Assembly: GCA_002633005.1 (NCBI GenBank)
Contig: NMRA01000180.1
Span: 433,955-497,954, forward strand
Direction of reading: 5' to 3'
DNA from: Phoronis australis
Taxonomy: Eukaryota; Animalia; Phoronida
Length of the DNA stretch: 64,000 nt
Part shown: positions 1-52,143 of the stretch, piece by piece
Layout: each line of letters begins with the position of its first letter
How positions within the stretch are numbered: the first letter of the stretch is position 1
The notes under the pieces: model-generated
The model's input: the letters and a program-made list of their open reading frames with translations, nothing else
Databases searched by the model: none
Told to the model about the DNA's origin: nothing
Translations under genes and position numbers: made by a program

Positions 1-40
1 TTATGCAGACCATGGTAATGGATCCACTTTGGCACTAGAC

Positions 41-165
41 GGATCTACTTCTCACTCAGCGGATCTACTTCTCACTCGGCAGATCTACTTCTCACTCAGT
101 GGATCTACTTCTCACTCAGCGGATCTACTTCTCACTCAGCGGATCTACTTCTCACTCAGTGGATC
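41..165. repeat. 20-bp minisatellite (GGATCTACTTCTCACTCAGC); second copy 2619-2764
   Basis: About 6 vs 7 units in the two copies. Confidence 0.95.
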
Positions 166-674
166 GCCAACAAGCACCAGTCTTCCTCCTTCACAAACTG
201 CACACGAGTTCCCATTAATTGAACTATTTTTTCACCAATAGAATTCTATTCCCACTTGCTGTATTTCTTTTCACATGACTTGCAAACCTGATCTGATGAG
301 CACACTTATTTTCTTACAAACTACACCCCTTTAAATTCAGCAACAGAAGGCATTGCTTGCACATAATATGCATAATGCTTTGAACAAAGTCTACCTGTAA
401 ACTGAAACTGGGAGCACATGCGGTTCATGACAAAATAAATGTATTCATACAAACACAATTGCAATGCACGTGAAAAGAACTAAAGCATAAGAATCTAATC
501 AATAAGGCATCATCACCACGTATACAATGCCAAAGCTTAGCGACTGACCTGTGAATTTGTTCACCCGAGGTCACTGCAATAGGTAATACTAGACCAAAGC
601 CCAAAACCAAACTGGTACAACTGCTCCACTGCTTTAACCAGATATCGCAATCACATTACTGATGCTAGGACATC

Positions 675-830
675 TTAAACTAAACCAAAGCCCTGCGACT
701 GCTCAATGGCTTTAACTAGCTTCTCTTGTAGTCTCTGTTTATTAGTGTACTTGGGTAGGTCCAACAGGTTGAAACAAGTGTGTGCCACAGGTAAGAAATC
801 TTCTCCGCCTCCAACAGGCTGAATTATTAC
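675..830 (-). CDS. HERC4: Duplicate of HERC terminal exon 25 (second haplotype copy)
   Basis: Near-identical to 3274-3429 (KYTN vs KYSN). Confidence 0.75.
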   Translation of the reverse strand, partial: VIIQPVGGGEDFLPVAHTCFNLLDLPKYTNKQRLQEKLVKAIEQSQGFGLV

Positions 831-1163
831 CTGTCAAGTAAAACATTGGCGTGAAGAAACTAGCAACTTTAACACTATTCGATAGAGTAAAACAAAAAGA
901 CACCTTCGTGATTAGAATGTTCAATTATTTTACAGAAGAAGTCCTTATTGTCATACCTCATGGCTAGGATTTGACACGTGGACTGACAACTTATAATTAA
1001 CACAAGTGACCAACAGAGTGGTGCTATACTTGGACACTCTCCTATGCTCATAAAGACATAATAATTCATTGTTTCATTCATGAGGCATTTATCACCTTTG
1101 TTACAGTGGCTGCAAGAGATTACAAGGAGATTTCTTTCTCCAGATTTATCTCTAATGATAGAA

Positions 1164-1322
1164 ACAGTAATATGTCCTTTTACAACCACCATACCTCAGA
1201 CATTCAACAGAATGGTCAGTAATACGTCCTTTTACAACCACCATACCTGACATTCAACAGAATGGTCAGTAATACGTCCTTTTACAACCACCATACCTCA
1301 GACATTCAACAGAATGGTCAGT
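1164..1322. repeat. ~50-52-bp tandem repeat, 3 units (also 3763-3920 and 4758-4893)
   Basis: CAGTAATACGTCCTTTTACAACCACCATACCTCAGACATTCAACAGAATGGT repeated. Confidence 0.9.
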
Positions 1323-3273
1323 CTGTGGTAAAGCATATTACGCAACAGCTCTTCAACAACCGAGCTGCACACAATTTTTTTTCTCGGGCCATGCCGTTTT
1401 CTACCCTGACTATGTTAACCACACTTATCAAAAGCCATCTGCAAATCAAAAAAATATCTAGTTCTCTGGTAGCAGCTGAAGCAAAGTGGATTCTCTTTTT
1501 CGCACTGTTTTAACTTTTGATCAGAAGCACACGATAGAAGAGCACAAACTAACCTTAACAGCTTTCATCCCTAATATAGGGATTCTATCACTTCCCGTCA
1601 AGAAGACTGAAAATTCAAAGGAAAAGGAAAATTAATGCAATTATGTTTTGAGTGCAGAATATCACACAGCAACTGTAACACCATGAACAGCAACAATGTT
1701 CTGTCAGATTTGTCAACCAAGTAAATAACTCGTACCGTTCCCCATTTTTACAGGAATTTCTAAGAAATAAAAAAACAGAAGACAACACATCTCTTGATGA
1801 TATGGATAAACATAGGAATTTATAGTTGTACAATATACTGATGCATAATTTACACTGTCAAGTACGCCAGCATAAAATGAAAAACAAGAATATTGTTGAC
1901 TAAAATAAGCTGCGACAATAATGTTCGTGTAGACCCAAGCAACAAATGCTCACAATCAACACAAAGTGATCCTTCCATCCCAAGAACATAGATTCCATTT
2001 AGCAAACATCTGTAAATTCAACATTGTTTCGAGCTGAGCTGCTTCTATGAGCTGCTTAATAACTTACACAGGAACTTTTTCTTCTTCTTTAGTGATAGTT
2101 CCTCAAACACATCCCAGAAAAACTTGATGGTCCTGTGCAGTGGGTGATACTCGCCTTTGTATTCCGTGTTCTGAAAACAAATTGTCTCCATAAACCAGAG
2201 GTCAGGATGACCTGGTCTGGGCCATGTTCTGTAACACTTGCCACTCGTGAGAAATCATGGATCATAGAAAAGACATTGCGAGTTAACGTCCGACTTTCTC
2301 CTGTAAGTCACTTCAGAGTTGGCNNNNNNNNNNNNNNNNNNNNNNNNNNNNNNNNNNNNNNNNNTGCTCATCTCTCAAGTTAAATAATAATGTTAATACA
2401 TATTATCAAAGTATCTAGAACTAAATATGAGACACTTGAGCTAAAATATTAAATTAATCTTCCAGACTACAAGGCAGTAGTCTCAGCAACTTGTAGTTTT
2501 GTCTGATAAGGGAGTTGTGTGGCAAGACTGCGTGGTTTGAGAGTCGGCATAATATTTTGCAAAAGCTGGTAAATAGGGTTATGCAGACCATGGTAATGGA
2601 TCCACTTTGGCACTAGACGGATCTACTTCTCACTCAGCGGATCTACTTCTCACTCAGCAGATCTACTTCTCACTCAGCAGATCTACTTCTCACTCAGCGG
2701 ATCTACTTCTCACTCAGCGGATCTACTTCTCACTCAGCGGATCTACTTCTCACTCAGCGGATCGCCAACAAGAACCAATCTTCCTCCTTCACAAACTGCA
2801 CACGAGTTCCCAATACCTGAACTATTTTTTTCACTAATAGAATTCTGTTCCCACTAGCTGTATTTCTTTTCACATGAATTGCAAACCTGATCTGATAAGC
2901 ACACTTATTTTCTTACAAACTACACCCCTTTTAATTCAGCAACAGAAGGCATTACTTGCACATAATATGCATAATGCTTTGAACAAAGTCTACCTGTAAA
3001 CTGAAACTGGGAGCACATGCGGTTCATGACAAAATAAATGTATTCATACAAACACAATTGCAATGCACGTGAAAAGAACTAAAGCATTAGAATCTAATCA
3101 ATAAGGCATCATCACGACACATACAATGCCAAAGCTTAGCGACTGACCTGTGAATTTGTTCACCAGAGGTCACTGCAATAGGTAATACTAGACCAAAGCC
3201 CAAAACCAAACTGGTACAACTGCTCCACTGCTTTAACCAGATATCGCAATCACATTACTGACGCTAGGACATC

Positions 3274-3429
3274 TTAAACTAAACCAAAGCCCTGCGACTG
3301 CTCAATGGCTTTAACTAGCTTCTCTTGTAGTCTCTGTTTATTAGAGTACTTGGGTAGGTCCAACAGGTTGAAACAGGTGTGGGCCACAGGTAAGAAATCT
3401 TCTCCGCCTCCAACAGGCTGAATTATTAC
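3274..3429 (-). CDS. HERC4: HERC terminal exon 25 ([28 protein letters not shown]...GFGLV*) with catalytic Cys
   Basis: HTCFN catalytic motif, -4 Phe, TAA stop. Confidence 0.92.
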   Translation of the reverse strand, partial: VIIQPVGGGEDFLPVAHTCFNLLDLPKYSNKQRLQEKLVKAIEQSQGFGLV

Positions 3430-6400
3430 CTGTCAAGTAAAACATTGGCGTGAAGAAACTAGCAACTTTAACACTATTCGATAGAGTAAAACAAAAAGAC
3501 ACCTTCGTGATTAGAATGTTCAATTATTTTACAGCAGAAGTCCTTATTGTCATACCTCATGGCTAGGATTTGACACGTGGACTGACAACTTATAATTAAC
3601 ACAAGTGACCAACAGAGTGGTGCTATACTTGGACACTCTCCTATGCTCATAAAGACATAATAATTCATTGTTTCATTCATGAGGCATTTATCACCTTTGT
3701 TACAGTGGCTGCAAGAGATTACAAGGAGATTTCTTTCTCCAGATTTATCTCTAATGATAGAAACAGTAATATGTCCTTTTACAACCACCATACCTCAGAC
3801 ATTCAACAGAATGGTCAGTAATACGTCCTTTTACAACCACCATACCTGACATTCAACAGAATGGTCAGTAATACGTCCTTTTACAACCACCATACCTCAG
3901 ACATTCAACAGAATGGTCAGTCTGTGGTAAAGCATATTACGCAACAGCTCTTCAACAACCGAGCTGCACACAATTTTTTTTCTCGGGCCATGCCGTTTTC
4001 TACCCTGACTATGTTAACCACACTTATCAAAAGCCATCTGCAAATCAAAAAAATATCTAGTTCTCTGGTAGCAGCTGAAGCAAAGTGGATTCTCTTTTTC
4101 GCACTGTTTTAACTTTTGATCAGAAGCACACGATAGAAGAGCACAAACTAACCTTAACAGCTTTCATCCCTAATATAGGGATTCTATCACTTCCCGTCAA
4201 GAAGACTGAAAATTCAAAGGAAAAGGAAAATTAATGCAATTATGTTTTGAGTGCAGAATATCACACAGCAACTGTAACACCATGAACAGCAACAATGTTC
4301 TGTCAGATTTGTCAACCAAGTAAATAACTCGTACCGTTCCCCATTTTTACAGGAATTTCTAAGAAATAAAAAAACAGAAGACAACACATCTCTTGATGAT
4401 ATGGATAAACATAGGAATTTATAGTTGTACAATATACTGATGCGTAATTTACACTGTCAAGTACGCCAGCAGAAAATGAAAAACAAGAATATTGTTGACT
4501 AAAATTATACAGTTAGACGAACTTACCTTAAGTGAAGGATGACTGTAATTTTATGTATCCCCAGAATTCCCCCAGAGTGCTAACATGAGATACGGACATG
4601 CGCAAAGCGGACCATTCTTTAAAGCTCTTCTGTAATCAAGAGAGTGCTAACAGGGTGGGATGTGGAGGGCATGTTAGCACTCTGGGGGAATTCTGGGGAT
4701 ACATAAAATTACAGTCATCCTTCACTTAAGGTAAGTTCGTCTAACTGTATAATTTTNCCACCATACCTCAGACATTCAACAGAATGGTCAGTAATACGTC
4801 CTTTTACAACCACCATACCTGACATTCAACAGAATGGTCAGTAATACGTCCTTTTACAACCACCATACCTCAGACATTCAACAGAATGGTCAGTCTGTGG
4901 TAAAGCATATTACGCAACAGCTCTTCAACAACCGAGCAGCACACAGTTTTTTTTCTCGGGCCATGCCGTTTTCTACCCTGGCTATGCTAACCACACTTAT
5001 CAAAAGCCATCTGCAAATCAAAAAAATATCTAGTTCTCTGGTAGCAGCTAAAGCAAACTGGATTCTCTTTTTCGCACTGTTTTAACTTTTGATCAGAAGC
5101 ACACGATAGAAGAGCACAAACTAACCTTAACAGCTTTCATCCCTAATATAGGGATTCTGTCACTTCCCGTCAAGAAGACTGAAAATTCAAAGGAAAAGGA
5201 AAATTAATGCAATTATGTTTTGAGTGCAGAATATCACACAGCAACTGTAGCACCATGAACAGCAACAATGTTCTGTCAGATTTGTCAACCAAGTAAATAA
5301 CTCGTACCGTTCCATATTTTTACAGGAATTTCTAAGAAATAAAAAAACAGAAGACAACACATCTCTTGATGATATGGATAAACATAGGAATTTATAGTTG
5401 TACAATATACTGATGCATAATTTACACTGTCAAGTACGCCAGCATAAAATGAAAAACAAGAATATTGTTGACTAAAATAAGCTGCGACAATAATGTTCGT
5501 GTAGACCCAAGCAACAAATGCTCACAATCAACACAAAGTGATCCTTCCATCCCAAGAACATAGATTCCATTTAGCAAACATCTGTAAATTCAACATTGTT
5601 TCGAGCTGAGCTGCTTCTATGAGCTGCTTAATAACTTACACAGGAACTTTTTCTTCTTCTTTAGTGATAGTTCCTCAAACACATCCCAGAAAAACTTGAT
5701 GGTCCTGTGCAGTGGGTGATACTCGCCTTTGTATTCCGTGTTCTGAAAACAAATTGTCTCCATAAACCAGAGGTCAGGATGACCTGGTCTGGGCCATGTT
5801 CTGTAACACTTGCCACTCGTGAGAAATCATGGATCATAGAAAAGACATTGCGAGTTAACGTCCTACTTTCTCCTGTAAGTCACTTCAGAGTTGGCCAGTT
5901 ATTTAGTCTAAACTTAGTAAGCTCACAAACTTACTTACAAAATGCTATTCCTTTGTTGACGTGATGTCACTTGATATCAAAAGAAACTAGTCATAAAGAA
6001 TGCAACTCTTGTCTTAATTACAATTTATGATTGTTTTTTTAATTTTTAGTAGCTGCTTATTGTCTATAATTCCATTAACTGTATCTTATGTTTTGTAGCT
6101 TCTTACACATAAGAAGACTACTTTAGTATGACACAGTTTAACCAGAATGTAAAACACTTTACTCTGTTTCTGTCTCAACCCATATATGGGCAAAAGGCGG
6201 AGCTCACTTACTCCCTTTAGCTCCTCCCAGTCGTAGTTCTCATTACCAACAACCATGGCTTGCAACTCCAATGGATGAAACAGTTCCTTCAAAAGATTTA
6301 ACAAAGTGTTACAAAATGTTACCATCAAAAGCAACACAAGGCAGCAAAACTGTGGATGGATAATATATTAATTACAACAAAGATGATATGTTATTTTCAT

Positions 6401-9400
6401 TTAGTGATGGATCCTTCTGAGTTGAGAAAATTTCAGTCTTTACTAAGTAAAGAAAGATTCATTGTATCTTAATTTTCAACAAGTCACTGTAAACAAACTA
6501 GGTAGACAAAAAGTTACACTAGAAAAAATTAAGGACATTTAAACGATTTCAGTAAAGCTGAGCTGTAGAATTTTACAAAGCAAAAGATACAAAAACACTA
6601 AACACTTTGCTACAAAGCCTGTCTGATCAAATAGGTCAAAGGTCACGACATACCAGCACCTTCCCACCACAGACATTGTGAAAGCCTTCATAGAATGCCA
6701 TGAACTGTCGAAGCACCGACTTGTTGAAGACAAAGTCAATGTAACTGTCAACATAGTCCTGCTTATTTGACTGATTGACAGCTATGTTGGTTCCATTGCG
6801 GATCAGTTCAATGTGTTCGATCTCTCCAAACCGCTCCCGTGTAATCTGTAACAAAGTGATGTTAACAAGACTGTATGATCGTAATCTGCAACAAAGTGAT
6901 GTTAACAAGGCTGTATGATCATAACCTGTAACAAACTGATGTTAACAAGGCTGTATGATCATAATCTGTAACAAAGTGATGTTAACAAGACTGTATGATC
7001 GTAATCTGTAACAAAGTGATGTTAACAAGGCTGTATGATCATAATCTGTAACAAAGTGATGTTAACAAGGCTGTATGATCGTGCTTCATGAAATGGAAAG
7101 CATAACCTCTTTGTATTTCTTCAGATTTCTGGTAGCTTCCATAGATGCAACAATCTTGCGAGTACAGCTAATGAGGTCATGGCGATATCTCACTATGTTT
7201 TTCGTTATCTTGCATTTTCCCAAGATTCTTGCACCTGAGGAACACAGCCCTGGTTTGCCACTTGAAGTTTTGAGTTTTGTGAATACAATATTAAATGGTT
7301 GCATTTTGCTATACTCTGCTTTAGGGCAAAGTCGTATTATTTTCACTTTAATGAAGGTTTTTTGAAAGGTAACCAGAGACATGCCATAACTGCTGAAGTC
7401 AAGTATCATTTACTTGATATCTATTCTGTTTTAGTTAAACAAGATGAGTTTGTTTGATACAAAAACGATACAGAAAAGAGTTTCACTAGTCTCGAGACCA
7501 ACTTACAATACTAAAGAACAAAAGTGTAACTATAAGTTCACCATCTATGGAAATGCATGTTCAACCCAGCGCCATCTACAGCAATGAATGTGCAAACCAG
7601 CAGAGTCAAAATAACAATGTCTCAGTCAGTTGTAAACAGCAGATTATTCATAATCAAGCCTCAATCAATACATTTCAATCACTAAAAGAGTGACACGTGT
7701 AGACAACAAGTCAACGCCATGTTTTACCTCAAAGTTCAAACAGAAGACTTCCTCCATGTCATCCTCCTCATAATCCAAGAGTTGCTGTAGACTACGGCCC
7801 AGAGATGGATCCAACTCCCTGAGGTCATCCAGTACAATAGGCCTGCATTGCAAGAATATGACAAAGACTAAAATGTAGATATCATAAGTTGAATCAGATT
7901 CTACTGGCTAGGTATTTCAGTTTAACCCTTCTATCAGAGGTGTTTTACCAAAAATAACCGCCTAACAAAATTTATGCAGAATTAAAAAATCTCTGCTGAA
8001 AACAAGTTTCTTTTGTCTTTAAATCTGACCTGGTTTTGATGACTACAAATAAAATTGCCTTCATACAGAAAAATCATCAAAAATTTGGCTAAAATACTAA
8101 TCACTTTTAAATTTATAAGGGCAGCTATGATTTGAAAAAATAATAAAAACAGAATTGCATACACAAACAAGGTGGACTACGCAAAAATAAATAAACACAG
8201 CACAATGCAATCCCTTCCTATTCACACTTTAATCACACAAAGCCTCACAGAACAAGTAGTAAACAATCCTCAAACAAAACAGTACACCTAAGTTGAAAGC
8301 TATGGCCACTGTTTCAAAAACCATAGTGCTTAAACACTTAAGCAGGGGTGCATTCTGCAGCACGTGTTTCTTGCAGCTTTGGCAAGGTCACACATTAACA
8401 AGAGAATTCAGCGATAATTATTTGGAAAGCTAACATTTTGCGAAGAACTTCACAACCTAATTAGCAAAGAGTAGCAAAATGGCCACCGCTATGTGACTGG
8501 TGGCGAGTCCAGAATGCTGACTTGAGAAAAAAATTTAGTTTCCATTCCACAAGTCAAAATTTCTTGCTGCAAATGTCCTGTGCGCCAGAATTACTCCCAA
8601 GAAACATCCTCAGAATACCTTTTATTAATGATTGTATCATCAGATTTGCTAAATGAAAAGAGTACCGCATTAGCAAATTTACCAATTAAAAAATCATCAC
8701 CATTTGATCACCACCACGCTGCGTTCGACAAAGTCAAGGTTTGTATGATTCACTCGACTGTTTTACTGAATTATAGAATATTTGAAAACCTTTAGAATGA
8801 CTAGCTAGATATTCCTTTAAAAAGACAATGACTTCGTAAAGCTATGTAGAAATCCCACTCCATATGTGAGGCTACGGTAAAATCTCGCCACTTAAAGACG
8901 CAAGATGGCGGACAAGTGAAATCCTATATTCTCATTTTTTCGATAAAAGTTATGTTTCACGAAAATAACTGCCGTGTTCAAATTCTGTACCATGGTCATC
9001 AACAAAACACTATTTTGAAAAAACTGGTCATTCACAACAATGCTAAGAGTAATTTTGATAATTATTTTGGTCCAAAATTGGCGAGATAATACCACACACA
9101 GTTTCACACCATGGTATAACACTAAGCAATGTAACAGCACCCATCAACCTAAGAACCAACCCAAATTTAGTTCTCATCAACACTCACAAGCATTGAGAAA
9201 ATCCTGAGTTAGCAACTGTATGACTTGTGTAAATTGCACATGAGCTACGAAATGCAGGTATTCTATTGTATTGTAGTCTATAATTGGTAAGTGGATGCCA
9301 CTGCCTCACCTGTTGAGCAATTTTTTATATAGAGCAGTTGGGAATGGAAGGTCAATGATTGTGTAATTGTAGATAGCCAATCCACAGAGTTTGCCAATCA

Positions 9401-12400
9401 ATGAGAACATTACACTGTCCTCGAAACACTGAAACAAAAAGGGAACAGCAGACAATTAACATCTACTCCAAAATTGCAAACTTTCACAATTTTAAGCAAG
9501 AAGACTGCGATTTCAAAAGGGATGATGACAGTCAAGTTCACTCTAATTTTTAGCACTACTTTCCATGAGGGCCCACAGCACACTACACTCCCTCTCTTTC
9601 AAGCCCTCAAGTTAAGACTGAGTACAAGAATTCATTAGACCATCGTACAATGTTCGCAGTCAGACAGTAAACACAGATTCCAACTTAGCGCTCACAAGTG
9701 AGAGTCAGCACAATTGTTTGATACTATCCTCCTCAAACCAGTGCAGCACATGGACAGGTCACTAATCTGTGCTGCCGCCTCTTGGTATGGCTGGCAGATG
9801 GGTGACCTCTCCATAACACTTATGTTTCCGTTTGACCTCGAGCGCACTGACTATTATGGTGTTCAGTCTTCAATTTTGTAGATGGAATGAAAGACACTAC
9901 GAAAAAATATTGATTACCAGAGCATTTGTTCGAGTTGGAAAGATTATTTTGAAGATTCCAAATGTTTCTAAAGGTGTCCATCCACACTTCGTTAGTACAA
10001 TACAGTAATGTAACTTGAATAGTTAAGCTAGGATTAAGTGTAATTTGAAGAAAATCTTCAGGCGTACAAGCTTGATTAGGATGTGCTGTTGTTTATACAT
10101 TACAATGTTCTCTATTCACTCATAAATTGTCTCTGTCACACAGAACTCCGTTCCTTGTGCACATGCTCCTCTGTTCACAACTATACAAAGTCACATCTGA
10201 CAAGGAGTACTTGATGGGATCAAATAAACTAACAAGTCACATCACACCGTCTACTTTGCAATCATGCAATGTACATTGTACAAATTTGTAAACAGTCATG
10301 AAAGCAGATATCATACTTTGTGTAACGACCCAACAGCCGAACATTATATGTCTACTTTTAATTCACATTCACTGCAAATTTCTACATCTCAGCGCAACTT
10401 ACCAGATCTGTAAACCAGAGAAGCCGTGACTCATCGTACGAGACAAACATGCCATATTTGGGATCTAAAATCTCCCTGATTAACAGCATGAAGAATTCCT
10501 GAAAACAGACAGTAGGAACAAGATGACACCTAGCAGCACCCACGTATCATGCTATGAGCATATTTCAATCAAGCCATGATATATTGACTGTAGGTACATC
10601 AACTCTTCTTGTGACAGCTGTGCAAGTAGCCAATGAGAACTAGTTCGCTACAGTCAGCTTAAAGGAAGCCTCCACCGCAAAAGTGCATCATCTTCATACT
10701 AACTGCATCCACTACTTAATATAATACGGTAATTTTCCACTCATTTCCCACAACAACACTTGCCGAAATTGCCAGTTTTACTTTGGTACAAACAGTGGAA
10801 ACTTTGCCAAATGTCTTATGACCAGACAAACTATTCCTAGTAATAGACAAAAATTTTATTAGTAATATTTTTGTGGAGAAATTTGACAAAATACAATTTC
10901 ACTTGTCGGCCATATTGCGTACTAAATAAAGAATTGTTGCAATAAAGCTGCTTTACCCTCCAATACAAGCCTGAACAGTAAATAATCACTGACGGGGCAA
11001 TAATCAATATAAATATTCTCCATTATAGGAGATAACTTAGGAAAATGTGATGGTCATGCTGCCATGTTCTATAGAAGACAATCGCGCGAGCGGTTTGGTC
11101 TACTGCACATCATAATTATAGGGATGACCGCTGTTAAGTACAACAAAAGTTGAATATTTTTATTTTGTTTCTAGAGTTCCATTGAAGTCATTGCTCAAAA
11201 TGGGGGATAAATGGATTTATTACATGACCCTGGCACTTATTTCTCGTATACACCTGAAAACAACAGCCTTCCTACGGATCCTCCCAAAAAGTATAATTTT
11301 TCCTTGTTGACAATTGAAAAATCTTGTATAGCACTAATTGTATCACGATGAATTGATTGGTATCGCTACAAACATCAACTTCAAGAGCAAATGAATTTGG
11401 TTCATTCAGCTGATAGGAAGGGCTAAATGAATGCAGTTGGTGGAACTAAGAATCAACAAACAATATACCAACAAGTATGACTGGAATCAAAACTTGATTT
11501 ACTAAACAACAGACAACGCTTCAAACAAAACGACTCGGGACCATCAGTATCAACACTGAACTTGCACAATTTTCGGTAACAGTCACTTACAGGGGTTCTG
11601 CACATTGAGAACCAGTTCTCTCTCTGGAATAACGAGCACCAAACTACTTCTCAAAATTTGGGAACCCTGTAAGAAACCTCGAACACGAAGCAACTAGTAG
11701 TGAGATGCTGCTGAAGACAAAAATCCTGAATGCTTTAAGCATTGAACACAAAGCAACACTAGAGGGCGTCATTTATCAATGCCGACCTTACGAACGCCAC
11801 CTTCGTCGACTGCGTCCTCACCAATGAATACTACCTGAAAGGGAAAACAACACTATGATCTCTAATTCTGTAACTGGGCATGAGTTGGACGCAAGTAGAG
11901 ACACTTTCTGATGAGTGGAGTGGGTAGGGCATTATTTCCAGCAGATTTAGAGTATTTAGGAAAGTACCGAGTAGGAGCATGCTTGAAAGCACCAGTGTAT
12001 CTCAAAAAAGCTGCATTGGCGGTGCCACAATCTAAGCCAGCAGCCACTTGAATTGAGCGTCCCGCAAAATAGATCATTGCAAAGCTAGGAAATTCAGTAA
12101 CACTGTTTCTCAGGAACAAAACCTTACCTCAGAAGAAAAATGCTAACCTGATGATTTCAACTACTACACCCTAAAAGTGCACTGTTTCGCAATAAAGTTT
12201 CAAGCGGAGGGTGTCAGAGGTCAGAAAGTGCTCTACCTGCGACCAAATCACTGCCCACACTCAGACATACCTTTTTAACACCACCTGCGTCAATGGCCTC
12301 CTCGCCAGTGAACATTACCTGAAAATATAGACAGAGCATGCAGGTCCCATCACCCGACAATAAGTAAAACTACTGCAACACGTCCCAATAACCAGCAGAC

Positions 12401-15400
12401 AAAATTTCAGGGAATTCCCTGTAGTTGGAATAACCTGTCTTGGTGTATGATTGCCTTCGGCACGTAATGTATACACCGCAGGGCCAAAGAAGCCACTCAA
12501 GCTTCTAACTAGCTTTAGTGTGGGTATAAGGGTGCTTACTGTTACTATGAATAGCACATACTAGTCACTATGAACATTCATGTAATTTTATACATCAAAC
12601 AAAATGACTGGTCAGCCAGCACAAAAACTGTCTTCAGCATTATATATCGAACTCTGCCCCTATCCCCAAATAATGAAATACAGAAAAAGTAGGTCTGAAA
12701 CATTTGCTGAAAATTTTATACTCTTAAATTGGCTTTTTGTATCAATTATTTTAAAATGCCTTTAACTACTCAGTAACTGCATACAAATTAATAACAATAA
12801 TACAGGTACTGCAACAATTTTGTCTCGACTCTTGTTATGACAAGTGGAGACTCAGCTCAGACGTTAATCGTAAAAGCAGTGCAAGTACAAAGCCTGACAA
12901 ACCAATATTCAAAAGACTCTCAGCAAAATGTCTTCTTAGTTGTCCAAGGCGGGAACACTTCCTTCCTACGATACTCAGCAATAACAAGAAAGAAAAACAC
13001 AACAGAGAAAGAAAAATACAACAGAGAAAGAAAAATACAACAGAGAAAGAAAAATACAACAGAGAAAGAAAAATACAACAGAGAAAGAAAAATACAACAG
13101 AGAAAGAAAAATACAACAGAGAAAGAAAAATACAACNAGAATTGTTGCAATAAAGCTGCTTTACCCTCCAATACAAGCCTGAACAGTAAATAATCACTGA
13201 CGGGGCAATAATCAATATAAATATTCTCCATTATAGGAGATAACTTAGGAAAATGTGATGGTCATGCTGCCATGTTCTATAGAAGACAATTGCGTGAGCG
13301 GTTTGGTCTACTGCACATCATAATTATAGGGATGACCGCTGTTAAGTACAACAAAAGTTGAATATTTTTATTTTGTTTCTAGAGTTCCATTAAAGTCATT
13401 GCTCAAAATGGGGGATAAATGGATTTATTACATGACCCCGGCACTTATTTCTCGTATACACCTGAAAACAACAGCCTTCCCACGGATCCCCCAAAAAGTA
13501 TAATTTTTCCTTGTTGACAATTGAAAAATCTTGTATAGCACTAATTGTATCGCGATGAATTGATTGGTATCGCTACAGACATCAACTTCAAGAGCAAATG
13601 AATTTGGTTCATTCAGCTGATAGGAAGGGCTAAATGAATGCAGTTTGTGGAACTAAGAATCAACAAACAATATACCAACAAGTATGACTGGAATCAAAAC
13701 TTGATCAACTAAACAGCAGACAACGCTTCAAACAAAACGACTCGGGACCATCAGTATCAACACTGAACTTGCACAGTTTTTGGTAACAGTCACTTACAGG
13801 GGTTCTGCACATTGAGAACCAGTTCTCTCTCTGGAATGACGAGCACCAAACTACTTCTCAAAATTTGGGAACCCTGTAAGGAACCTCGAACACGAAGCAA
13901 CTAGTACTGAGATGCTGCTGAAGACAAAAAATCCTGAATGCTTTAAGCATTGAACACAAAGCAACACTAGAGGGCGTCATTTATCAGTGCCGACCTTACG
14001 AACGCCACCTTCGTCGACTGCGTCCTCACCAATGAATACTACCTGAAAGGGAAAACAACACTATGATCTCTAATTCTGTAACTGGGCATGAGTTGGACGC
14101 AAGTAGAGACACTTTCTGATGAGCAGAGTGGGTAGGACATCATTTCCAGCAGATTTAGAGTATTTAGGAAAGTACCGAGTAGGAGCATGCTTGAAAGCAC
14201 CAAAGATTATAGTAAATAGTGTATCTCAAAAAAGCTGCATTGGCGGTGCCACAATCTAAGCCAGCAGCCACTTGAATTGAGGTCCCGCAAAATAGATCAT
14301 TGCAAAGCTAGGAAATTCAGTAACACTGTTTCGCAGGAACAAAACCTTACCTCAGAAGAAAATTGCTAACCTGATGATTTCAACTACTACACCCTAAAAG
14401 TGCACTGTTTCGCAATAAAGTTTCAAGCGGAGGGGGTCAGAGGTTAAAAAGTGCTCTACCTGCGACCAAATCACTGCCCACACTCAGACATACCTTTTTA
14501 ACACCACCGGCGTCAATGGCCTCCTCGCCAGCGAACATTACCTGAAAATATAGACAGAGCATGCAGGTCCCATCACCCGACAATAAGTAAAACTACTGCA
14601 ACACACCCCAATAACCAGCAGACAAAATTTCAGGGAATTCCCTGTAGTTGGAATAACCTGCCTTGGTGTATGATTGCCTTCGGCGCGTAATGTATACACC
14701 GCAGGGCCAAAGAAGCCACTCAAGCTTCTAACTAGCTTTACTGTGGGTATAAGGGTGCTTACTGTTACTATGAATAGCCCATACTAGTCACTATGAACAC
14801 TCATGTAATTTTATACATCAAACAAAAATGACTGGTCAGCCAGCACAAAAACTGTCTTCAGCATTATATATCAAACTCTGCCCCTATCCCCAAATAATGA
14901 AATACAGAAAAAGCAGGTCCGAAATATTTGCTGAAAATTTTATACTCCTAAAACGGCTTTTTGTATCAATTTTTTTTAATGCCTTTAACTACTCAGTAAC
15001 TGCATACAAATTAATAGCAATAATACAGGTACTGCAGCAATTTTGTCTCGACTCTTGTTATGACAAGTGGAGACTCAGCTCAGACGTTAATCGTAAAAGC
15101 AGTGCAAGTACAAAGCCTGACAATCCAATATTCAAAAGACCCTCAGCAAAATGTCTTCTTAGTTGTCCAAGGCGGGAACACTTCTTTCCTACAATACTCA
15201 GCAATAACAAGAAAGAAAAATACAACAGAGAAAGAAAAATACAACGGAGAAAAAAAATACAACGGAGAAAGAAAAATACAACGGAGAAAGAAAAATACAA
15301 CCGAGAAAGAAAAATACATCCGAGAAAGAAAAATACAACAGAGAAAGAAAAATACAACGGAGAAAGAAAAATACAACCGAGAAAGAAAAATACATCCGAG

Positions 15401-18400
15401 AAAGAAAAATACAACCAAGAAAGAAAAATACAACCAAGAAAGAAAAATACAACCGAGAAAGAACAACACGGGTTAAGACCACTCACCTTGAGCGGTTTCT
15501 TGAGATCAGCTTGGCCCTGTTTTGTGAGCTGTTCTATTGTATCATGGACAATCTGCGTGCGGCTGATGTAGAGGATAAGGCAGGGACAGACAGGGTCGAT
15601 CAGGGACACAGGGAACAAGAAGTTGGTGAGGTTACGGCGCGACACCTCATCCACAGCTGCCTGTGAAAAGAAGGTACACAACAGGGCTGAAGCTGAGAGT
15701 TGCCAGAACATCCCCATAACCCAGGTTCCCAAGTACAAAAGGAAATGGTCTGTAGAATATGAGCTCCATAGTTATCAAGGGTATATTTCATGAAAAGTGA
15801 CTTCAAACTGAAGTCAGAAATTTGGTCTTGCACTCCACACAACTACTCTTGAAAAATAATTAAATCTCAATTGAGCAAAAATGCAGCAAAGTCTGCAACA
15901 ATATACACACTGCTAGTTACTGACAGAGATAATTATAAATTATTTCTAGACTATGACATGCTCATAATTACCATGATAAACCTTTAATCCAGACTGTAAA
16001 GTGGGAACATAACATCAAATTTTTGTCTTAAGACTTAAGTCATTTTTTATGAAACACATCGATGAGTTGATAACCACAAAAAGAAATCATGCCTAAATTT
16101 TTCATCCACTACTAAAACTAGACCTAGATAAACAGTTATTCCCAGGCTAAAACAAAATCTTCAAACTAAGTGTGAGCCTGTGTTTAGACCGGATGTACTT
16201 TACCTGCATCTGCATGGCTGCATCTGTGTGCAAAAGAATCGTTTTGGCTTGAGCATCGAAGATGAACGGGTAGTTACAAAAGGAATGTCTACCATTCTGC
16301 AAGAACCAGGATAACATAAATAACGAATCAAAACGAGATAGCATCAATATCTTTTTGAAATGCAGACACAATTAGTAAATATCTACAAAAAGATAGTATG
16401 GTGAAATCATTTACCAACATGTTTAGTACTCAAAATAAACTGGACAATGTAAAAATATGATGTTGTTTTGCAGCGCATAATTGCTACTAAATATATCCAT
16501 TTGTTTAGAGCTCATTCCAATTCTGGCTAAACTCAGGTCTTGCTCCACTCACTTTATCGAAATTCCCACAAATCTCCTTGCAAGGTCCTTCACAAATAAA
16601 CAATTCCTGGCCAAGTGCAATAACGCCCTATTAAACTTTGCCTTACATTTGACACAAAAATACAATTTCATTGGTACAAAAGTTTGGCTGAACTGCCAAA
16701 TAACCCTGACAACAAGTTTGTTCAAGCGTCGTGGAATCTGGCAGAATTCTGTCAAGGGCTGTCTACTTCATTTTGAAAACTATTGTAAGCTCCTCAGCAT
16801 AAGCGGGAAGATCATCAGGAAGCTGGTGAGACACTTTATGAATGTTTACTGGGAAAATGGTACTCAGATGGCAGATGATACAAAAGATCTGGCATCTCAC
16901 GAGACATCATGTGATCACGGGATGAAACAAATGGTCACAACTATTATACAGAAGAACTGGCATCTCAAGGGATGCCATGTGAACACGGGATTAAACGAAT
17001 GCAGTCATACCTATGATACAGAAGAACACGGGATGAAAACGAGACGCCATATGAACACCGGATAAAACAAATGGTCATTACTACCTGTCCGCTAGTTGGC
17101 TGTTGCTGTCTCCAACTAACATAGTCCATTCGAATGTCCACCTTCTCTGATAAGGCGCTGATGTAAAATGAGTCATATGGCACAATCTGAGAGCTTTTCT
17201 CATTTATATTATTTAGTTTTTTCAGCACTTCCAAGCAAATCTGGATATATCGCTGCCCGGCTAGTACGTCGTAGTCTGAGCCTTGTGCTGTACTGTTGAA
17301 TACATTAAGAATACAGTTCTTGTAAATCTGAAAATGGAAATAATCAACAACAGATGGTGAACATATTGCTGTAATACTCCACTTCTACGACACAGTCACT
17401 TGATTTCACACATACAAAATTATTTGGCAATATAGTTTACTGCTAATCCCCTATGTTGCAAGAGGTTATTTCACTGTTATTGAGAGCCTGAGAGGTTATT
17501 TCACTGTTATTAAGAGCCTGAGAGGTTATTTCACTTTTAATGAGAGCCTGAGAGGTTATTTCACTGTTATTGAGAGTCTGAGAGGTTATTTCACTGTTAT
17601 TGAGAGCCTGAGAGGTTATTTCACTGTTATTGAGAGCCTGAGAGGTTATTTCACTGTTATTGAGAGCCTGAGAGGTTATTTCACTGTTATTGAGAGCCTG
17701 AAGTAGTTCGTTCACGACCAGTTTTCAGAAAGAAAACAAATTGCATTCCAAAAACTTAACACAACATGAAAAATGAACATCAACAATTGATAAATGTGTT
17801 AAATCATAATTCATTAATAGTCATAACATTGATAATGTTAAGTGAAATAAATAATTATGTCTTAAAAGTCCACTACACCAATAAGTTAGCATGGTTTACC
17901 GTCCACTGGACTTGAGAGAAGGCAAACTGTCCTCTATTTCAGTGTCATTGCTATGTATAAATTCCGTAAACTGCCAGTTCAAACCACATCTGCGAAATGT
18001 TTTTGTTTTATAACTTGACCTAAAGCCCTCCCTCCTCAGGGATACGTGGTCCCAACTCAAGTACAATCAATACTTATACAACAAACTGTTAACTTTCTAC
18101 TCAACAATGTTCATTTTATTCCAGCTTATTCCAACTGTACCTGAATCAGCATTTTGAAGTCCCTGGCTTGCAGTTTCGCCCACCATTTATCTAAAGAGAG
18201 AAATAGAAACTGAATATTACTCCATTCGACAGGATGAGAAGTTGAGCCTATATCCCAAATTAAGGACAAACAGTCACCTAAACATAAAACTGATGAGTAA
18301 ATTTTCAAAATATTACGTTAATGAAACTTGACTTAAATGTAACAAAATCGTAGACATAGACGTGTATTGATTATACACTAAGTAAACGGAAAGTAATAAA

Positions 18401-21400: not shown

Positions 21401-24400
21401 TGACATGTCAGAACTGCCCAATGCAATTTCAGTTTAAAGTTTGACAAGCATGGTGGGGTGGGCTGTACCGTTCTTCACTTGCCTGTATTAAATCAAAAGT
21501 GTGCAAGCAGCCTACTGCTACCTTTTGAAAGCTAGTCTAAGGTCAACCATACAATGCATTTTCTACAACCACAAAAGAAGAAAGTTTCAATTCAGTTTGA
21601 AACTTTTAGTAAGCAGAACACTGTTATTCAATTTTTTAAATAACATTACCTGCTTGGTACAAGACATACCACAAATCTTGACAATGTGATCCTTAACATA
21701 GACCCTTTGAGATCCTACTCACCTTAGCAAGAAAGACCCATTGAGACATGCTGCAGAGGAGAATATTGCTTCAATATTTCTGAAAAACATGGAACATTTA
21801 AAAAGAAAACTAGTTAATGTAGCAGAGAGCATCTCACCACTGCAATAGCACCATAAAACGTCACTTTAAATGAAGAAAAACAAGAGATGTAGTGATGTAC
21901 TTCTAACCACACGGCATCAAATATTAACAAGTATTTTTTCTATATTGCCAGGGCTGCAGTCATAAATCATTGCTGAAAGAATTATGCTTTTTGTCACTGG
22001 TTTTCACATGACTATCACGAGATAAAAATATGATTCAAAAAATAGAAAGGTACCTTATTAAAGATCTTTCATTTTGTATTTTGAACCAGTAGTTGTACAG
22101 TGAATACCACATGAGGTGCTAGTAATTGTACAGTCATGAACACCATATGAGGTGCCAGTAGTTGTACGGTCCTGAATACCGTATCAGGTGTCAGTAGTTA
22201 TACAGTCCTGAATACCATATGAGATACAGGTAGATGTACAGTCCTGAATACCACATGAGGTGCCGGTAATTGTACAGTCCTGAATACCATATGAGGTACC
22301 AGGAATAGTACAGTCCTGAATACCACGAGGTGCCAGTAATTGTACAGTCCTGAATACCATATGAGGTGCCAGTAATTGTACAGTCCTGAATACCATATGA
22401 GGTAACAGGAATAGTACAGTCCTGAATACCACGAGGTGCCAGTAATTGTACAGTCCTGAACACCATATGAGGTGCCAGTAGTTGTACGGTCCTGAATACC
22501 GTATCAGGTGTCAGTAGTTGTACAGTCCTGAATACCACATGAGGTGCCAGTAGTTGTACAGTCCTGAATACCATATGAGGTGCCAGTAGTTGTACAGTCC
22601 TGAATACCATATGAGGTGCCAGTAGTTGTACAGTCCTGAACACCATATGAGGAACCATTTCCACATGATACATACTCTTTCATGGAGTTTGACAATCGCT
22701 CGGCAGGGCTGACTCTAGCGTAAGTGTCTATCATTGTTTCGTCAATAGTGAGTATTCGCTTGTCTTTGGCAAACACACGGAAATCATCTACGTCCGATTC
22801 CTGCAATATTTTTTAACTACTCAGCAGAAGTAAAATCCACAAGTTAGGAGAGACAATAAAACGATCCTTCTACGTGTCTGTATATAACTGTGTTGTTAAC
22901 TGCGTTGTTAGTTATTAACATGCATGACTAGTAAATCCTTCATAGAATCCATAGAATTAACTCCTTACCAGTTTTAAACAAAATACTCTTCACATTTGGT
23001 AGTAAAAAGAACAGTCAGGAATATCCCGTTTGTCTGCTCATACAAACAAACAAACAAAAAATAACTGCATTCTTCATTCCAATCCAAAAGCAAAACCCAA
23101 GCCTCACTACACAACTCTTTTGTCGCAAAAACAACAAAAAATTAAGACAAAAAGTCACACGTGATAAAAGAAATACTAAACAATATGTTCACCGCCAACC
23201 TACCCTACATTTTAACATTTCTTATAATCTTATCACTGTAACTTATCATTATCATGTCACAGTTTTATTTCATGGTAACAAACGCAAGAAGTTTCATTCA
23301 ATACTTAAAGCGGTAAACATGGCACCTCATGGGGAGTGGACGTAAAAGGAGCAAAAAAGGTAAAGAAAGGCTTACTTCATCTCCAGACATCACGGTGAAA
23401 CAGGTGTCTCCCCCAGCATAGATGCACCTGGCAACAAGGGGGTTGATGCCGTCTACCTCCATCACGCTTACGGCTGAGGTCAAGGTCATCCACCAGCCAT
23501 CCACTGGCTGTGGCAAGTCACTGCTGGGCACAGATTTCTGACCAAGCTGACCACTTCCACCCAGACCAAACGAGTACAGTCGCCCACTACTACGTACAAA
23601 GGCCAAGGTGTGCTGGCTGTAAGGAAGCAAAGCTGATGGTTATGACAATCTCAGGTAGTTAAAGCTTGTGCTTGTTAGAATGTTCAGTTTTAGAGACCTT
23701 ACCAAAGACACCTTGAGGCAATTAAAGGGACATTTCTTGCATTCTCACAACCTAAAATCTAAGTTATGAAAACCTTTCCATAAAGTACAAAATACACTTC
23801 ATCGCCAAACCGATCACTCTATGGGACAAGTGAAAAAGGTAAAAATCAATTTTGACCGCATTCTTCAAGCCTGACAGCACATGGGGCCATTCAGCTGACG
23901 TTGAAAACAAATTGGAATAATGGTAAGAACTATTTGTGAAACTAGTTCGCTAGACATTTTTAGTCATGGTTTCCATGATTTATTTGTCTGACACACCCTA
24001 AGAAGACATGGCTTTGTAATGCAATGTAAACAATCACTGGTTTGAAAGTACCGAAATGGTAACAGTGCCAGGAATAAATAATGATTTTAAAGAACTGGGC
24101 TAGCAAATAAATTGATAAATCTACTCATCACTTTCTTGAATACATGCCACTTAGCAATAAATCATGGGATAAATGTAAACGTACTTTCCACAGGCTATCT
24201 GTGACACTGTACTGCCCATCAGTTCAAACACTTTCCTGGGTAGGAGTTCATTATTCTTTGACCCGTGTCCAAGTTGACCGCACGTGCCTGCACCGAATGT
24301 AAAAACACCACCATCCTGCAATGCAATGCCAATCTTGAACTTTCACGGAAAACTCCAGACTGTGGGCTACCTATCAACTCAATGGCACACTTTCCTGACT

Positions 24401-38653: not shown

Positions 38654-41575
38654 AGCGTAGTAGTATCCACGAACAGACTGTTACTCTGTATTTTCCGTAA
38701 GTACTGAAGCGGCACAGAGCTTAGAGGGCTTCATCTGCACGATATGAAAGCCATCATTAATGACAGAAACTTCTAAAAGGTATACCAATATTAAAGCTAT
38801 GTAGGACTTCATAAAATAAATCTGAGAAATGGCTGTTTCGGATTCATATGAAACTTTCAGATGCAGTGCTTTATGCACTGTTCTTCAAAATGCTGTACGG
38901 GATTGTTTATAAATTAATGCACTTTGATAGCACTTTTACGATTTCGATGAATTAATTCAAAAGTTGCTTAACACGAAAAAGATATAACATTATAGAAAAC
39001 TGTAACAAAACTTTTGAGATTTTGTCTTGAACAACTATATCAAAATTGGTTGTGTTGTTGATACTGCTCTTTTTCTTTTTTTGCTAAAGTTTACTAAAAG
39101 ACATGGTCAAGTGACTCATTTAATGACAGATTGGTATGTTACAAAGCAAAGTCTACAATGCATATGTGTACAATATGTGTTTAAAGACCTTAAGATCTAT
39201 GCTTTTCTAGATATTTGTCTAAATTCACACTTGTTGATAAGGTCCAATGAAACCTTAAAAACTAGGGTTTAACCACAAAACATAAATAAAAACTGCAACA
39301 GTTCTGAAAGATGGTGCTGCCTTAGTCAGTGCAGCATAATGCAGACCCAAAGTTCAAACCAAGAGCATTGAACAACAATTTCAATAGCTTGGCACTTAAA
39401 ATTTCCAAGACAAATGATTGTGCCATAGCTAAGCTGTAGACCAGAATAATTAGTATCAAATACAAGTGAATAAATGGACCACATAACTACTAATACCCTG
39501 TTCACACCAAAGCAGTTATAACATTTAAAACTAATTTAAAGGTTTTAACTCTCAGCTTTAAATAACTCCAAGAGGATGGTTTGGTGAGAGGTTATCACCG
39601 CTGTAACTGGGTGTAAACACAGCAGCTACAAAAGTTACAACTCTGTAGGTGGCACTGCAGTCAAATCTCTATTAAAACAATAGGGTCATCCCGAATTACA
39701 CAGCAACACTCGAATCTTGAAGTATTTACCCACAATACCGTAAACAACTGTCAGGCACATTTGCTACCTCACTTTCATGCCACTCGAGTTTCACACGTTA
39801 TTCACTGTTGTCTGATTCTTTACAAGTTTTTCTCGGTTGGATTTCTCTATTCGTCCTTTTAATGCCAACGAAGTATTACTGCTGTGTTGTGGGCTGCAAC
39901 TCCGACATGAAAAAGTTAGATAAACTGGACAAATACCCATGAATGTGTGATATGAAACTCTTCGCTTTCTTTGACATCAATGAATGTGCCCGATTTCCAA
40001 AACTAGGTCACGCGCGTTCTAATCTCCAAGACAGAGGAGAGTTCTATCGCCATGTAATCCGGAACGGCCCTATTGTGGCAAACGGAGGCCACTCTAAGTT
40101 GGACGAATCAGAAACCGGAAAATGACAATACTGACAACTATCAACCAAAACAAGAAATCAGGATTACAACAGATTTTGAAAATTATGTTGGTGTGGAGGG
40201 TAGATTACATTACAGTTACAACCTCACTTAGTTGGCCTGAATGCAGCTTTGAATGACAAAAAAGAGCAAGTTGCATGGTACCAGTAAAATTTATTACCCT
40301 TTAACATCAAGGTAAATAATTACAATTAAAAAAGTATGTACGCAGAACACAATCACTCTCAATCAGCAGGTACTAGAAGCTTGAATCAAACTATTATATA
40401 ATCACCCAGGCCAGGTATTGAAAGTACTGGAGGAACTTCTGAATTCTCACTTCCTCTCCCACAGAAAAATGGAGATTTGATATTTTAAAAGCCAACAAAT
40501 AATTGTTAGTTGGTTGTAGTTAAAATAATATTTTAAATACAATATAGTTAAAATAATATTTTAACTACAACATTATATAAGATACCCAGCAGATGAAACT
40601 GGTGTCTGTTCATTTCACCAAGCTCACAATGTTTTGCTAACAGAGATCTATGTCACTTGGTTATGAAAAGAATTAGAAAGTGAAAGCAATTCACAGGAAT
40701 TTCCTGTAGCTATATATTGAATTGTTAAGTATGGGTCTTGGAAAGCACTGATAAATCAACAAAAAGGCTATAGTTAGGCATGTGGAGAAAATTATTTTTA
40801 AAAACATTTCAACTCGATAGATCTGCTGTCAGTAATGGGGTCATTATCGCCAGCATTTAATATACCTACATTCACAAACTGGCTAAAATGCTTGTTTACT
40901 TAAGGACTTTCGTTAGTAGACTAACTATCAGTAATGCAATAGTCATTCTTGCTGGCAGTACAAGTAACACAAAAACCGCTGGGCTTTTCGAAAGCACCTA
41001 CTTTTGTAGGCCACCGTTTACTTCAATGGACACACACACATGGGGGCCAGTGGGAAGCATTTGTTTAGTGTTGCATTGGTAATCAATTTACGGCAGACAG
41101 TCTAAGAGTTTTGATATTGATTATCACAAAAAACATTTCAGGAAGTGAGACTACCTCCACAAGAATCCATACACTCGAAAGGTACATTGACCTAGTACTA
41201 GTAATCCGACTTAGCCATGGTTGAACGGAATAAGTAAAATTTTCATCACACAAAACAGATTAGGATGTGACACCGCCGACATGTAGTCAGCCAGCTAATC
41301 TGCAAGAAGAATTACGTCAAAATACAGCTAGGAACCACTGTGAATTAACCTTAGCCTAAAAAGACCTCGAAATTTCGCACTGCCCGGGTAGCAATTACAC
41401 CACCTGTGGATTAGTGCAGAAACCGACGGGTAATGCTGTAGCTCCTGCATAGAGTCGAAGGACTATAGGTGTTGCCTAGGCCCATGTAGGCAACATGTGG
41501 CCCCTTGATTGACTGGCTTAGGAGAAAATACACTCCAAATCGGTCTCTATGTTAATTTCAGCCCATGTATGTTAA

Positions 41576-42879
41576 ACGGGCGGTAAGCCAAATCCGTTCA
41601 CTGAATAAGAGGTTTTCGCCTCCTAAAAAATACATTTTACACTTAAAAAGGCACTTATTTTTTTGGCCATCTTGCATGTCCAAGGCAATTATGTTAAGTT
41701 TGGGGAAGAATTCCAACTCCACTTTAATTTGGTCTCCGTCAACTTTTTCACTGCACAGAACAACCACGCAGTATTTCAATTGACAATACGTGAGTTGGGC
41801 AAGGACAAGCGCATGACTGAACTAAGCATGCGAGCTGGTGCAAGAAACGGCAAAAAGTAGCATAGCCATGGGATGATATCCGATGAAATTTGTAACATTT
41901 GTTTCTCTTGCACTTTTTGTTCGTCAACAGGTGTGATTTCATGTAACTTCCTCCAATTAGCACCCGATGAGAGAAGCTCAAGTGAACCATACATGACAGA
42001 TTTTCATGGATACACATGTTCTAATTATTTTGACTAAATCGTCTCCACAGAATGGTGCGTCTTAATTACAACTCAATGTGTATATATTATATGCATGTTT
42101 AATTCAACGTTATTCAGGCACTGGTTGGATTTAGTGGTCCTTGATTTAGAGAACCAGGCAATCACTGAATAACAGGCCCGTGGATGAAACTGTGATAGCT
42201 TGGTTCTCTAAATCAGGGACCGCTTTGTCTGACCAGTGCCGTTATTCGCTGTATTCTGAGTAGGCAATTACATCGCCCTGAATGCAGTAGACATACAGGG
42301 CTGATAGTACACCCCCAAAAAATTACTCATATCACAAAACACTAAAAAAACTCGAATGAAACATGTATATATACACGTGGAGTTGCAATTAACACCTACC
42401 ATGACTCTGGAGACAATTTAGTCAACGTCATTTGAACATATCCATGAAAATTTGTCGCGGTTTTCTCGAGCCTCCCTCAACGGGTGCCATATTTTGAGGA
42501 AGTTATGTGAAATCATGCATGTTGACACAAATCTGATACCTTCCCATGCTATTTGCAAATGTCACCCTGCATGGCCAGCGTCATACGCTTTGCTCAGTCT
42601 CGCGCTAGTTTTTGCCTTACTCACATGACACAGTTGAAATACTTAATGGTTATCGCACGAATGGTGAAAAAGTTAACGATGACCAAAAAGCGAAATTGGA
42701 AATCTTCGCCAAAGTTACGCCATAACTATACTTCACCAACGACATGTGTAGAAGTAGAAAGGAACACTGAAGAAAGGAAGCACTTTTTTAAGTCATAGTT
42801 TTAAGTCTTTTAAGAGTAGAATGTATTTTTGACGAAGTGAAAACTCTCAATCAGTGACCGGATTTGGCCCACTGTCCGT
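41576..42879. mobile_element. ~1.3-kb degenerate foldback element flanked by TTAA (Kolobok/piggyBac-like MITE)
   Basis: TTAA|ACGG...CCGT|TTAA; long imperfect inverted arms; inner hairpin at about 42115-42240. Confidence 0.7.
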
Positions 42880-43572
42880 TTAAAAATACACAAAACGAAG
42901 TCCTAGCCATTCAATCCGAGGGTCTACGTGTTGCCTATATTTTGAGATGATGAGCAACATTTTCTGAAGGTGTAACATCGCCTGTACACGGCGTGTAGGC
43001 TAATTCCTATTGCCTACCTAACCAGCGAACGCCAAGAACTACGTAGATTACTGCTAGTGCTAGTCACCCACCACTGCACACGTTCAGATTACATCACCTA
43101 CATGCAATAATTTGGCTTAAAAGGGGTTTTGTTGCGCTTATTTATCATAGTCACAATGGCTCTCACCAAACAAAAAGCCACAGCTTTCATCACACTGATA
43201 AAACTAACGTTTTGTCTAACCACTGAACTACACGACACGTACTTTTCAAAGCTCGAAGAAGTTGCCCAGACCATTTGTTTCTGTTGTGTTATGAAAATTC
43301 ACGCACTCAGCGAGACTAGTGGAGATTGGTTGTAAGCCATTTTGAAAAACTGGACCGATCTACGGTTGCATGTTTAGCCCTGCAAGCAAACAATTTCTGC
43401 GGTATTTAAAACATCTGTTTCCTGGCTTTTTAAGTTAAATTTAGTTATTTTAAAAGGTTAATTTCAGGAATACGTAGTCATATTATTAGCATATAAGACA
43501 CATTTTTCAATTAGTTAGGACATGAATGGTCTTCAACTTAAAGCAAGTAAGATATCAAAATAGAGTATGACA

Positions 43573-51236: not shown

Positions 51237-51964
51237 GTAATATGTAATACTAACTATGAAAAATATTCAATGTGGAACTCAAATAATTGATGAAATTGTC
51301 ATATTTCTATTTTTAGAAGGCTTGCCACGTTATTGTAAATGCCGAAAATTTTACCAAATGTTGTTTGGTGATAGCTACATGATATAAAAACCCTGTTAAA
51401 AGCGTAGTAAGTTTTCCTGAAAAGTTACTTTTGTTTACAAATTTGAGAAAATAAAATGTTACTTGTCTGCTATATTGTGTCCCAAACTGAGGAATGTTTA
51501 CAGTTCTTCTGCATACCTATGGGACTTTTTTGAGGCCTTGGCCATACAGCTTGTATTTCGAAGTTTTTCCAGGTGGAAGTTAAATTTTAAGTTTTTTGTA
51601 TACCGACCTGCAGCAGAGTAGTTGTTGTTTTAGTAAATTTTATTCTTAAAATATCATGCAGTATGGTTCTTCAGTAAAATAGTACTTTAAGTTTTGCATT
51701 GCCAGGTTTGTAAATACATTTTGGTGGCCTTTTTGGTAGGTAAATCAAAGAAAATGCTCCAGGCCAATGTTATCTTGCCTTGATTCAATGATTAAAGGTC
51801 GTGCAGTCATTTGTAAGTTTACCAAGAATTTGTATTCCTCTATGTTGATGAAATGGTTGTGTGCCATCTCGCTAAATAAGTTTATACAATTGGTGAGTCA
51901 AATATTAGACGAATTTCATGAGACACAATGGGTTACTTACAATAAGTTAAATGTTTTCAACCAT

Positions 51965-52115: not shown

Positions 52116-52143
52116 AACGCTTTGGTATTGCCTCCTTCTACAG

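Follow-up and report, generated by a model that had tools for sequence, protein, structure and literature searches.

A predicted RNA stem of 30 to 37 base pairs in an intron of a HERC4-like gene of Phoronis australis probably keeps two neighbouring exons, 17a and 17b, from being spliced to each other, by holding the 5' splice site (donor) of 17a too near to the branch point of 17b. The locus presents a natural experiment: the same exon pair is separated by a spacer intron of 51 to 77 nt in some animals, whereas the spacer here is 436 to 451 nt long and is predicted to fold to 53. All positions given below refer to the window, meaning the whole stretch of 64,000 nucleotides that was analysed.

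The host gene lies on the minus strand and encodes RCC1 repeats followed by a HECT domain. From this layout, and from relatives that carry the name HERC4, the gene is assigned to HERC4, an assignment that does not tell HERC3 and HERC4 apart. The numbers of exons 16, 17a, 17b and 18 are labels taken over from the first-pass annotation. Exons 17a and 17b are tandem homologous exons of equal length in phase 0, with valid AG/GT splice sites (Table 1). The region that carries them is present twice in the assembly, at 10930-13137 and at 13138-15480 with an N at 13137 as the junction; the two copies of this 2.2-kb duplicate differ by 48 substitutions over ~2 kb; we read them as two haplotypes. The last HERC4 exons also occur two to three times within positions 1-5800 (N at 4757; N run 2324-2364), as haplotype duplicates.

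Table 1. Positions in the window of the alternative exons, their neighbours and the elements of the spacer intron
Feature	Position	Strand	Description
Upstream constitutive exon 16	15487..15660	-	174 nt, phase 0, AG/GT ends, open frame; RNA-joined to 17a and 17b
Exon 17a	14494..14541	-	48 nt, 16 residues; junction reads on second copy
Spacer intron	14043..14493	-	451 nt, GT..AG; removal seen in no listed read
17a donor and 13 nt preceding stem	14481..14493	-	nt 6-9 may pair with nt 416-419
5' arm of stem	14447..14480	-	intron nt 14-47
Looped-out 330 nt	14117..14446	-	no significant structure; most haplotype differences of the intron
3' arm of stem	14083..14116	-	intron nt 378-411; buries best branch-point-like motif, CUCAU (A at -47)
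40 nt after stem	14043..14082	-	candidate branch adenosines at -29 (14071) and -22 (14064), the branch point being putative; pyrimidine tract; 17b acceptor
Exon 17b	13995..14042	-	48 nt, 16 residues; junction reads on second copy
Downstream constitutive exon 18	10403..10498	-	96 nt; RNA-joined to 17a and 17b
Second haplotype copy	11787..12318	-	17a 12271-12318; intron 11835-12270 (436 nt); 17b 11787-11834
Second-copy stem arms	12221-12257 and 11875-11911	-	within the 436-nt intron

The segment encoded by 17a or 17b belongs to the HECT N-lobe and matches E6AP residues 557-572 (chain numbering). At the DxGG position, exon a encodes A, G or H and exon b encodes D or E in 8/8 pairs (the window, six orthologous loci and the bivalve gene model P0013), and it is exon b, not exon a, that agrees with E6AP there. 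This pattern would represent a conserved HERC4 isoform switch, with a small or His residue in exon a and an acidic one in b. The variable DxGG position was presumed by us to be linked to the ubiquitin exosite tyrosine of NEDD4. That link was dropped, since E6AP Ile564 and NEDD4 Tyr605 map to exon 18 in a check against PMC6463701. Protein searches with single exons gave no match, nor did a PDB search with exon 16.

Reads from three RNA runs of the same species, all from one study and amounting to about a fifth of each run, were mapped on the second copy, and joints with fewer than 3 reads in a run were not listed. Exon 16 is joined to 17a by 20 reads (4, 7 and 9 over the three runs) and to 17b by 9 reads (5, 4 and none listed). 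Exon 18 is joined to 17a by 16 reads counted from loose ends (4, 8 and 4), or 14 in the joint listing, and to 17b by 7 reads (3, 4 and none listed). No 17a-17b joint is listed at the threshold of 3 reads per run, compared with a total of 52 counts for junctions that use a single exon. Exon 17b is covered to a depth of ~5 in run X5 and 4 in run X6, the same as the numbers of 16-17b reads there (5 and 4). Although the data are shallow, they agree with the earlier proposal that the two exons are used one at a time; with 0/9, they are statistically compatible with double inclusion in as many as roughly one in four 17b transcripts. In run X7, where the listing has no 17b junction, reads pass from both exons into the spacer (11824-11968 and 12143-12258, depth 3-7), a pattern that at this shallow depth possibly reflects slow removal of the spacer or a tissue preference for 17a.

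Two common explanations of mutually exclusive splicing do not apply to this pair. Double inclusion would add 96 nt in frame with no stop codon, and decay therefore cannot explain the exclusion. Judged against the U12 consensus, the donors GTGAGT, GTATGT and GTCGGC are all ordinary GT types and none is U12-type, so that U2/U12 incompatibility was rejected.

The stem described in the first-pass annotation is reproduced by folding prediction, in which intron nt 14-46 form 30 base pairs with nt 379-411. Its irregularities are also as described: one G-U pair (34-392), mismatches at 24/402 and 29/397, and bulges at G20 and U385. In the second copy the stem is extended by CUGA/UCAG (12257-12221 with 11911-11875), nt 47-50 pairing with nt 360-363. 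Most pairs have predicted probabilities of 0.9-1.0, and the arms alone reach -44.4 kcal/mol. When the first 60 nt of the intron are paired with its last 90 nt, the duplex has an energy of -53.1 kcal/mol, compared with -24.3 +/- 5.2 for shuffled sequences, and 0/2000 shuffles are as good; for the second copy the value is -59.6 kcal/mol, with 0/2000 dinucleotide shuffles as good. The same test on 11 other introns of the gene gives -13.5 to -34.5, some of their boundaries being off by 1-2 nt. Without anchoring, the duplex scores -45.5, and the best of 60 shuffles scores -35.9. The stem is the strongest 30-nt duplex anywhere between exons 16 and 18 (-39.2; runner-up -30.4), and it is retained when the intron is folded together with both exons and their flanks.

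Other measures are less distinctive. Folded as a whole, a comparison with shuffles that the first-pass annotation had suggested, the intron is not unusual (z -1.40; 10/100 shuffles as good). In a coarse stem scan of the entire window, the second copy ranks 3rd of 4028 scanned segments, and the first copy is absent from the best 30. Pairing is stronger on the sense strand than on the antisense (-47.1 vs -39.8), owing to two G-U pairs only. A single core pair is polymorphic, nt 47 being C or U against G, and both alleles keep the pairing; one polymorphism in the 68 nt of the arms compares with ~1.6 expected, a scarcity that is not significant. No A-to-G changes are listed in the arms at a read depth of 3-5, which is too low to be informative about editing. 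The best Rfam match has 17 bits against a gathering cut-off of 53.5, and thus the search gave no known structured RNA family.

Two inner helices that had been proposed as nested within the stem do not hold up. The first, GCUUGAAA/UUUCAAGC, has pair probabilities of 0.15 and 0.0 in the two copies, and the second, of 10 bp (14418-14409 with 14306-14297), has 0.07 and 0.9. Both were rejected because 31% and 45% of 100 shuffled loops form helices like them and because they are unstable between the haplotypes.

The 17b acceptor is preceded by AG dinucleotides at -20, -27, -29, -35 and -41, and there is consequently no AG-free zone. By the rules of AG scanning, these positions make -29 or -22, both beyond the stem, the more likely sites of the branch adenosine. 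A distant branch point (+10) was ruled out by the five AGs between the stem and the acceptor. The unpaired remainder outside the stem is 13 + 40 = 53 nt, as had been claimed. We propose that the stem forms co-transcriptionally, as soon as its 3' arm has been made, so that 13 nt remain on the donor side and 12 or 19 nt on the side of the branch adenosine. The folded donor-to-branch distance would then be ~26-33 nt. In the linear sequence, by comparison, the candidate branch sites lie at intron nt 423 and 430, more than 400 nt from the donor. The folded value is below the limit of ~50 nt for joint assembly of U1 and U2, as given in PMC5740500 and PMC7969005. Each splice site would remain usable with a distant partner, so that 16 could be joined to 17b and 17a to 18. 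A shortest-path measure of folded length was also tried and dropped, since it was dominated by the weak pairs of predicted structures.

The stem would account for exclusion only; which of a and b is used would depend on splice-site strength or on proteins. Downstream of exon a, the 15 bases that open the intron (14479-14493) agree at 14/15 with positions 806-820 of an orthologous locus, L012, and the exons themselves are only ~78% alike. In two other loci, L004 and L023, exon a is likewise followed by a stretch rich in GU. To judge by this similarity, the 15-nt stretch downstream of the 17a donor is a candidate regulatory element for the choice.

To compare spacers across species, metagenome contigs were scanned with a degenerate exon motif, which yielded 28 loci; the flank was 2500 nt, and longer spacers could thus have been visible. 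The same a/b pair is present in 6/28 loci, with spacers of 57 nt (L004), 65 nt (L007), 77 nt (L012), 65 nt (L016), 51 nt (L022) and 122 nt (L023). All six spacers have longer introns on either side, of 86 to more than 1736 nt; the other introns of the compact loci L004 and L022 go down to ~80-87 nt by eye. The remaining 22 loci have one exon, and both neighbouring exons are in view in 8 of them. None of the 28 loci is an ortholog with a long spacer, and the window intron is the only long one among the seven pair spacers. None of the six ortholog spacers folds better than its shuffles, and the longest, L023 (122 nt), has z +0.69. In the five short spacers, candidate branch adenosines lie ~21-33 nt from the donor, close to the 26-33 nt predicted for the folded intron, and spacers of 51-77 nt keep within the donor-to-branch limit by their linear length.

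The exons cluster a with a and b with b for 13/14 sequences, the exception being exon a of L023. In the tree, five of the six pair loci fall into one clade (support 74), L023 is unplaced, and the deep nodes that bear on the position of the window have supports of 13-34; the five clade-mate loci with short spacers may therefore count as one observation. The bivalve gene model P0013, a predicted protein named hypothetical by its source, strings both exons in a row and is probably a mis-predicted either/or pair. Because a and b group across loci and the bivalve model has both, the exon pair appears to be old. HERC4 of toad, hagfish, urchin and hemichordate has one version of the segment, as judged from protein records only. 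At L006 a weak exon-like stretch (score 33, no acceptor) lies 142 nt upstream of the single exon and may be a decayed second copy. The exon pattern has no match in prokaryote genomes or viral contigs.

Taken together, the steric model of the first-pass annotation is plausible and partly supported, by the one-at-a-time use of the exons, the in-frame pair, ortholog spacers of 51-122 nt that resemble the 53 unpaired nt, single-copy arms and the lack of a rival pairing partner. The nested helices lack support, and a predicted extra helix beside the donor leaves room for a masking variant of the model. A short spacer would be the older state, and the stem would compensate for growth of the intron, keeping an ancestral steric lock in its enlarged form.

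An explanation that we regard as unlikely is that the stem acts by masking and not by distance. The stem buries CUCAU, pairing its A at -47, and an extra helix of 4 bp beside the 17a donor, nt 6-9 with nt 416-419, is predicted with a probability of 0.74-0.96 and covers the edge of that donor; both sites would thereby be tied up. PMC7797038 describes a precedent in human ATE1, where a stem within the spacer intron hides the 7b acceptor. A stem so stable and without a rival partner would, however, always block 17a or 17b, yet both are used. With a branch point at -47, the CAG that follows 12 nt later would likely be preferred to the real acceptor, and the orthologs manage with a short intron alone and have no such stem.

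Strong stems by themselves are not rare in this DNA. Foldback elements that are not related to the stem, each with long inverted arms, are present at 41572-42883, 53361-53687, 53957-54489 and 51959-52122, and the first three are as strong as the stem. Because equally strong foldbacks lie in the window, the case for the steric model rests on the position of the stem and on the orthologs, and not on strength. Other repeats were also observed. A short, abundant genomic repeat occupies 10866-10929 in the intron before exon 18, with a DNA depth above 3000 and RNA reads on both strands. Intronic tandem arrays occur at 22038-22753 (unit of 36 nt), 17431-17760 (30), 15171-15529 (19) and 6802-7120 (40); the one with the 36-nt unit comes immediately after a HERC4 exon, and the one with the 40-nt unit ends at an acceptor.

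These foldbacks give some weight to the idea that an inserted foldback element left the stem behind as a neutral relic, with exclusion brought about by proteins or by exon-definition rules. The 15-nt stretch in common with L012 could bind a regulator, and Drosophila Rdl exon 3 offers a precedent (PMC13762713). We nevertheless consider the idea improbable. The first-pass annotation had named membership of the arms in a dispersed MITE family as an observation that would count against a function, and no such family was found: in DNA run X1, the read depth of the intron at 90% likeness is that of single-copy sequence (3-7, vs 83 and 3294 in repeat bins), and besides its haplotype copy it has no match in the window (best other E 0.29), although older, diverged copies could escape this comparison. 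The single-copy data thus speak against a young transposon family, not against an old one. The arms are imperfect inverted repeats, and no clean target-site duplication is apparent by eye at the flanks. Furthermore, the unpaired remainder has the size of an ortholog intron, and the orthologs suggest a size limit that a neutral insertion would break.

An insertion could also be reconciled with the steric model. In this tentative scenario, which we find possible though doubtful, an ancient, size-locked intron absorbed an insertion of 380 nt, possibly a foldback transposon, whose inverted ends pair and hide it, so that one non-competing stem fully replaces the short-intron lock. If this scenario is true, limits on the size of introns between either/or exons act on folded length, and steric exclusion could be hidden in long spacers that have been set aside because of their length.

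Competing RNA structures, in which the stem would be one half of a docking-site/selector system with the other half in a flanking intron, are the commonest structure-based mechanism according to PMC6071210 and PMC7797038, and the 3' arm is also predicted to pair weakly with the intron that follows 17b (-20.4; 5/500 shuffles, in one of six tests). We consider such a system very unlikely here: between exons 16 and 18, the next-best partner of each arm scores -29 vs -47 for the stem, at least 18 kcal/mol weaker, and an ATE1-like pairing of the region before 17a with the 5' arm is not significant (36/500 shuffles). Stems that join intron ends usually promote splicing, as PMC7404189 reports for yeast, which counts against the steric model, but an ordinary bridging stem that aids intron removal, with double inclusion occurring and being missed, is scarcely credible, since no 17a-17b joint is listed vs 52 single-exon counts and the bivalve model that includes both exons is a predicted protein only.

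Steric exclusion that depends on RNA structure has a reported precedent. In Lepidoptera, pairing within the spacer intron of 14-3-3 xi is said by Yang et al. (2012) to enforce exclusion through steric hindrance, and Dscam exon 17 is reportedly a further steric-hindrance exon pair (Yue 2013). In the moth system, the intra-intron pairing reportedly competes with inter-intron pairings, whereas no rival partner was found for the HERC4 stem, and the HERC4 orthologs have a short intron in place of a stem. Steric exclusion is already established, and its structure-induced form is reported for the moth; a folded substitute for a short orthologous intron would be a variant of it. Listings of the open-access literature showed no paper on a lone stem standing in for a short orthologous intron and none on the HERC4 exon pair, although survey supplements may already include the pair.

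Competing RNA structures are the usual RNA mechanism of exclusion (PMC6071210, PMC4691838, PMC6027157, PMC7797038 and PMC6191721). Like human ATE1 7a/7b, the Dscam docking and selector sequences and srp, HERC4 has long-range intronic pairing around duplicated exons, and R3-R4 of human ATE1 is also within the spacer intron. Unlike these systems, HERC4 has one dominant stem, no second partner and a pyrimidine tract outside the main stem.

OGDH 4a/4b is a steric-hindrance exon pair with a short donor-to-branch distance (PMC7969005), and 57 human clusters of steric-hindrance exons are described in PMC5740500. HERC4 resembles them in its in-frame duplicated exons, its constrained spacer intron and a limit near 50 nt. 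In those pairs, however, the linear distance itself is short, either because the intron is small or because the branch point is a distant one preceded by the donor at close range and followed by a long AG-free zone, whereas the distance in HERC4 is predicted to be short only when folded. Surveys score steric exclusion by linear donor-to-branch distance, with cut-offs of <50 nt in PMC5740500 and 60 nt in PMC13762713. Should the stem prove to be the cause, these surveys ought to use folded length in place of linear length, and the HERC4 locus is a compact minigene candidate for this idea.
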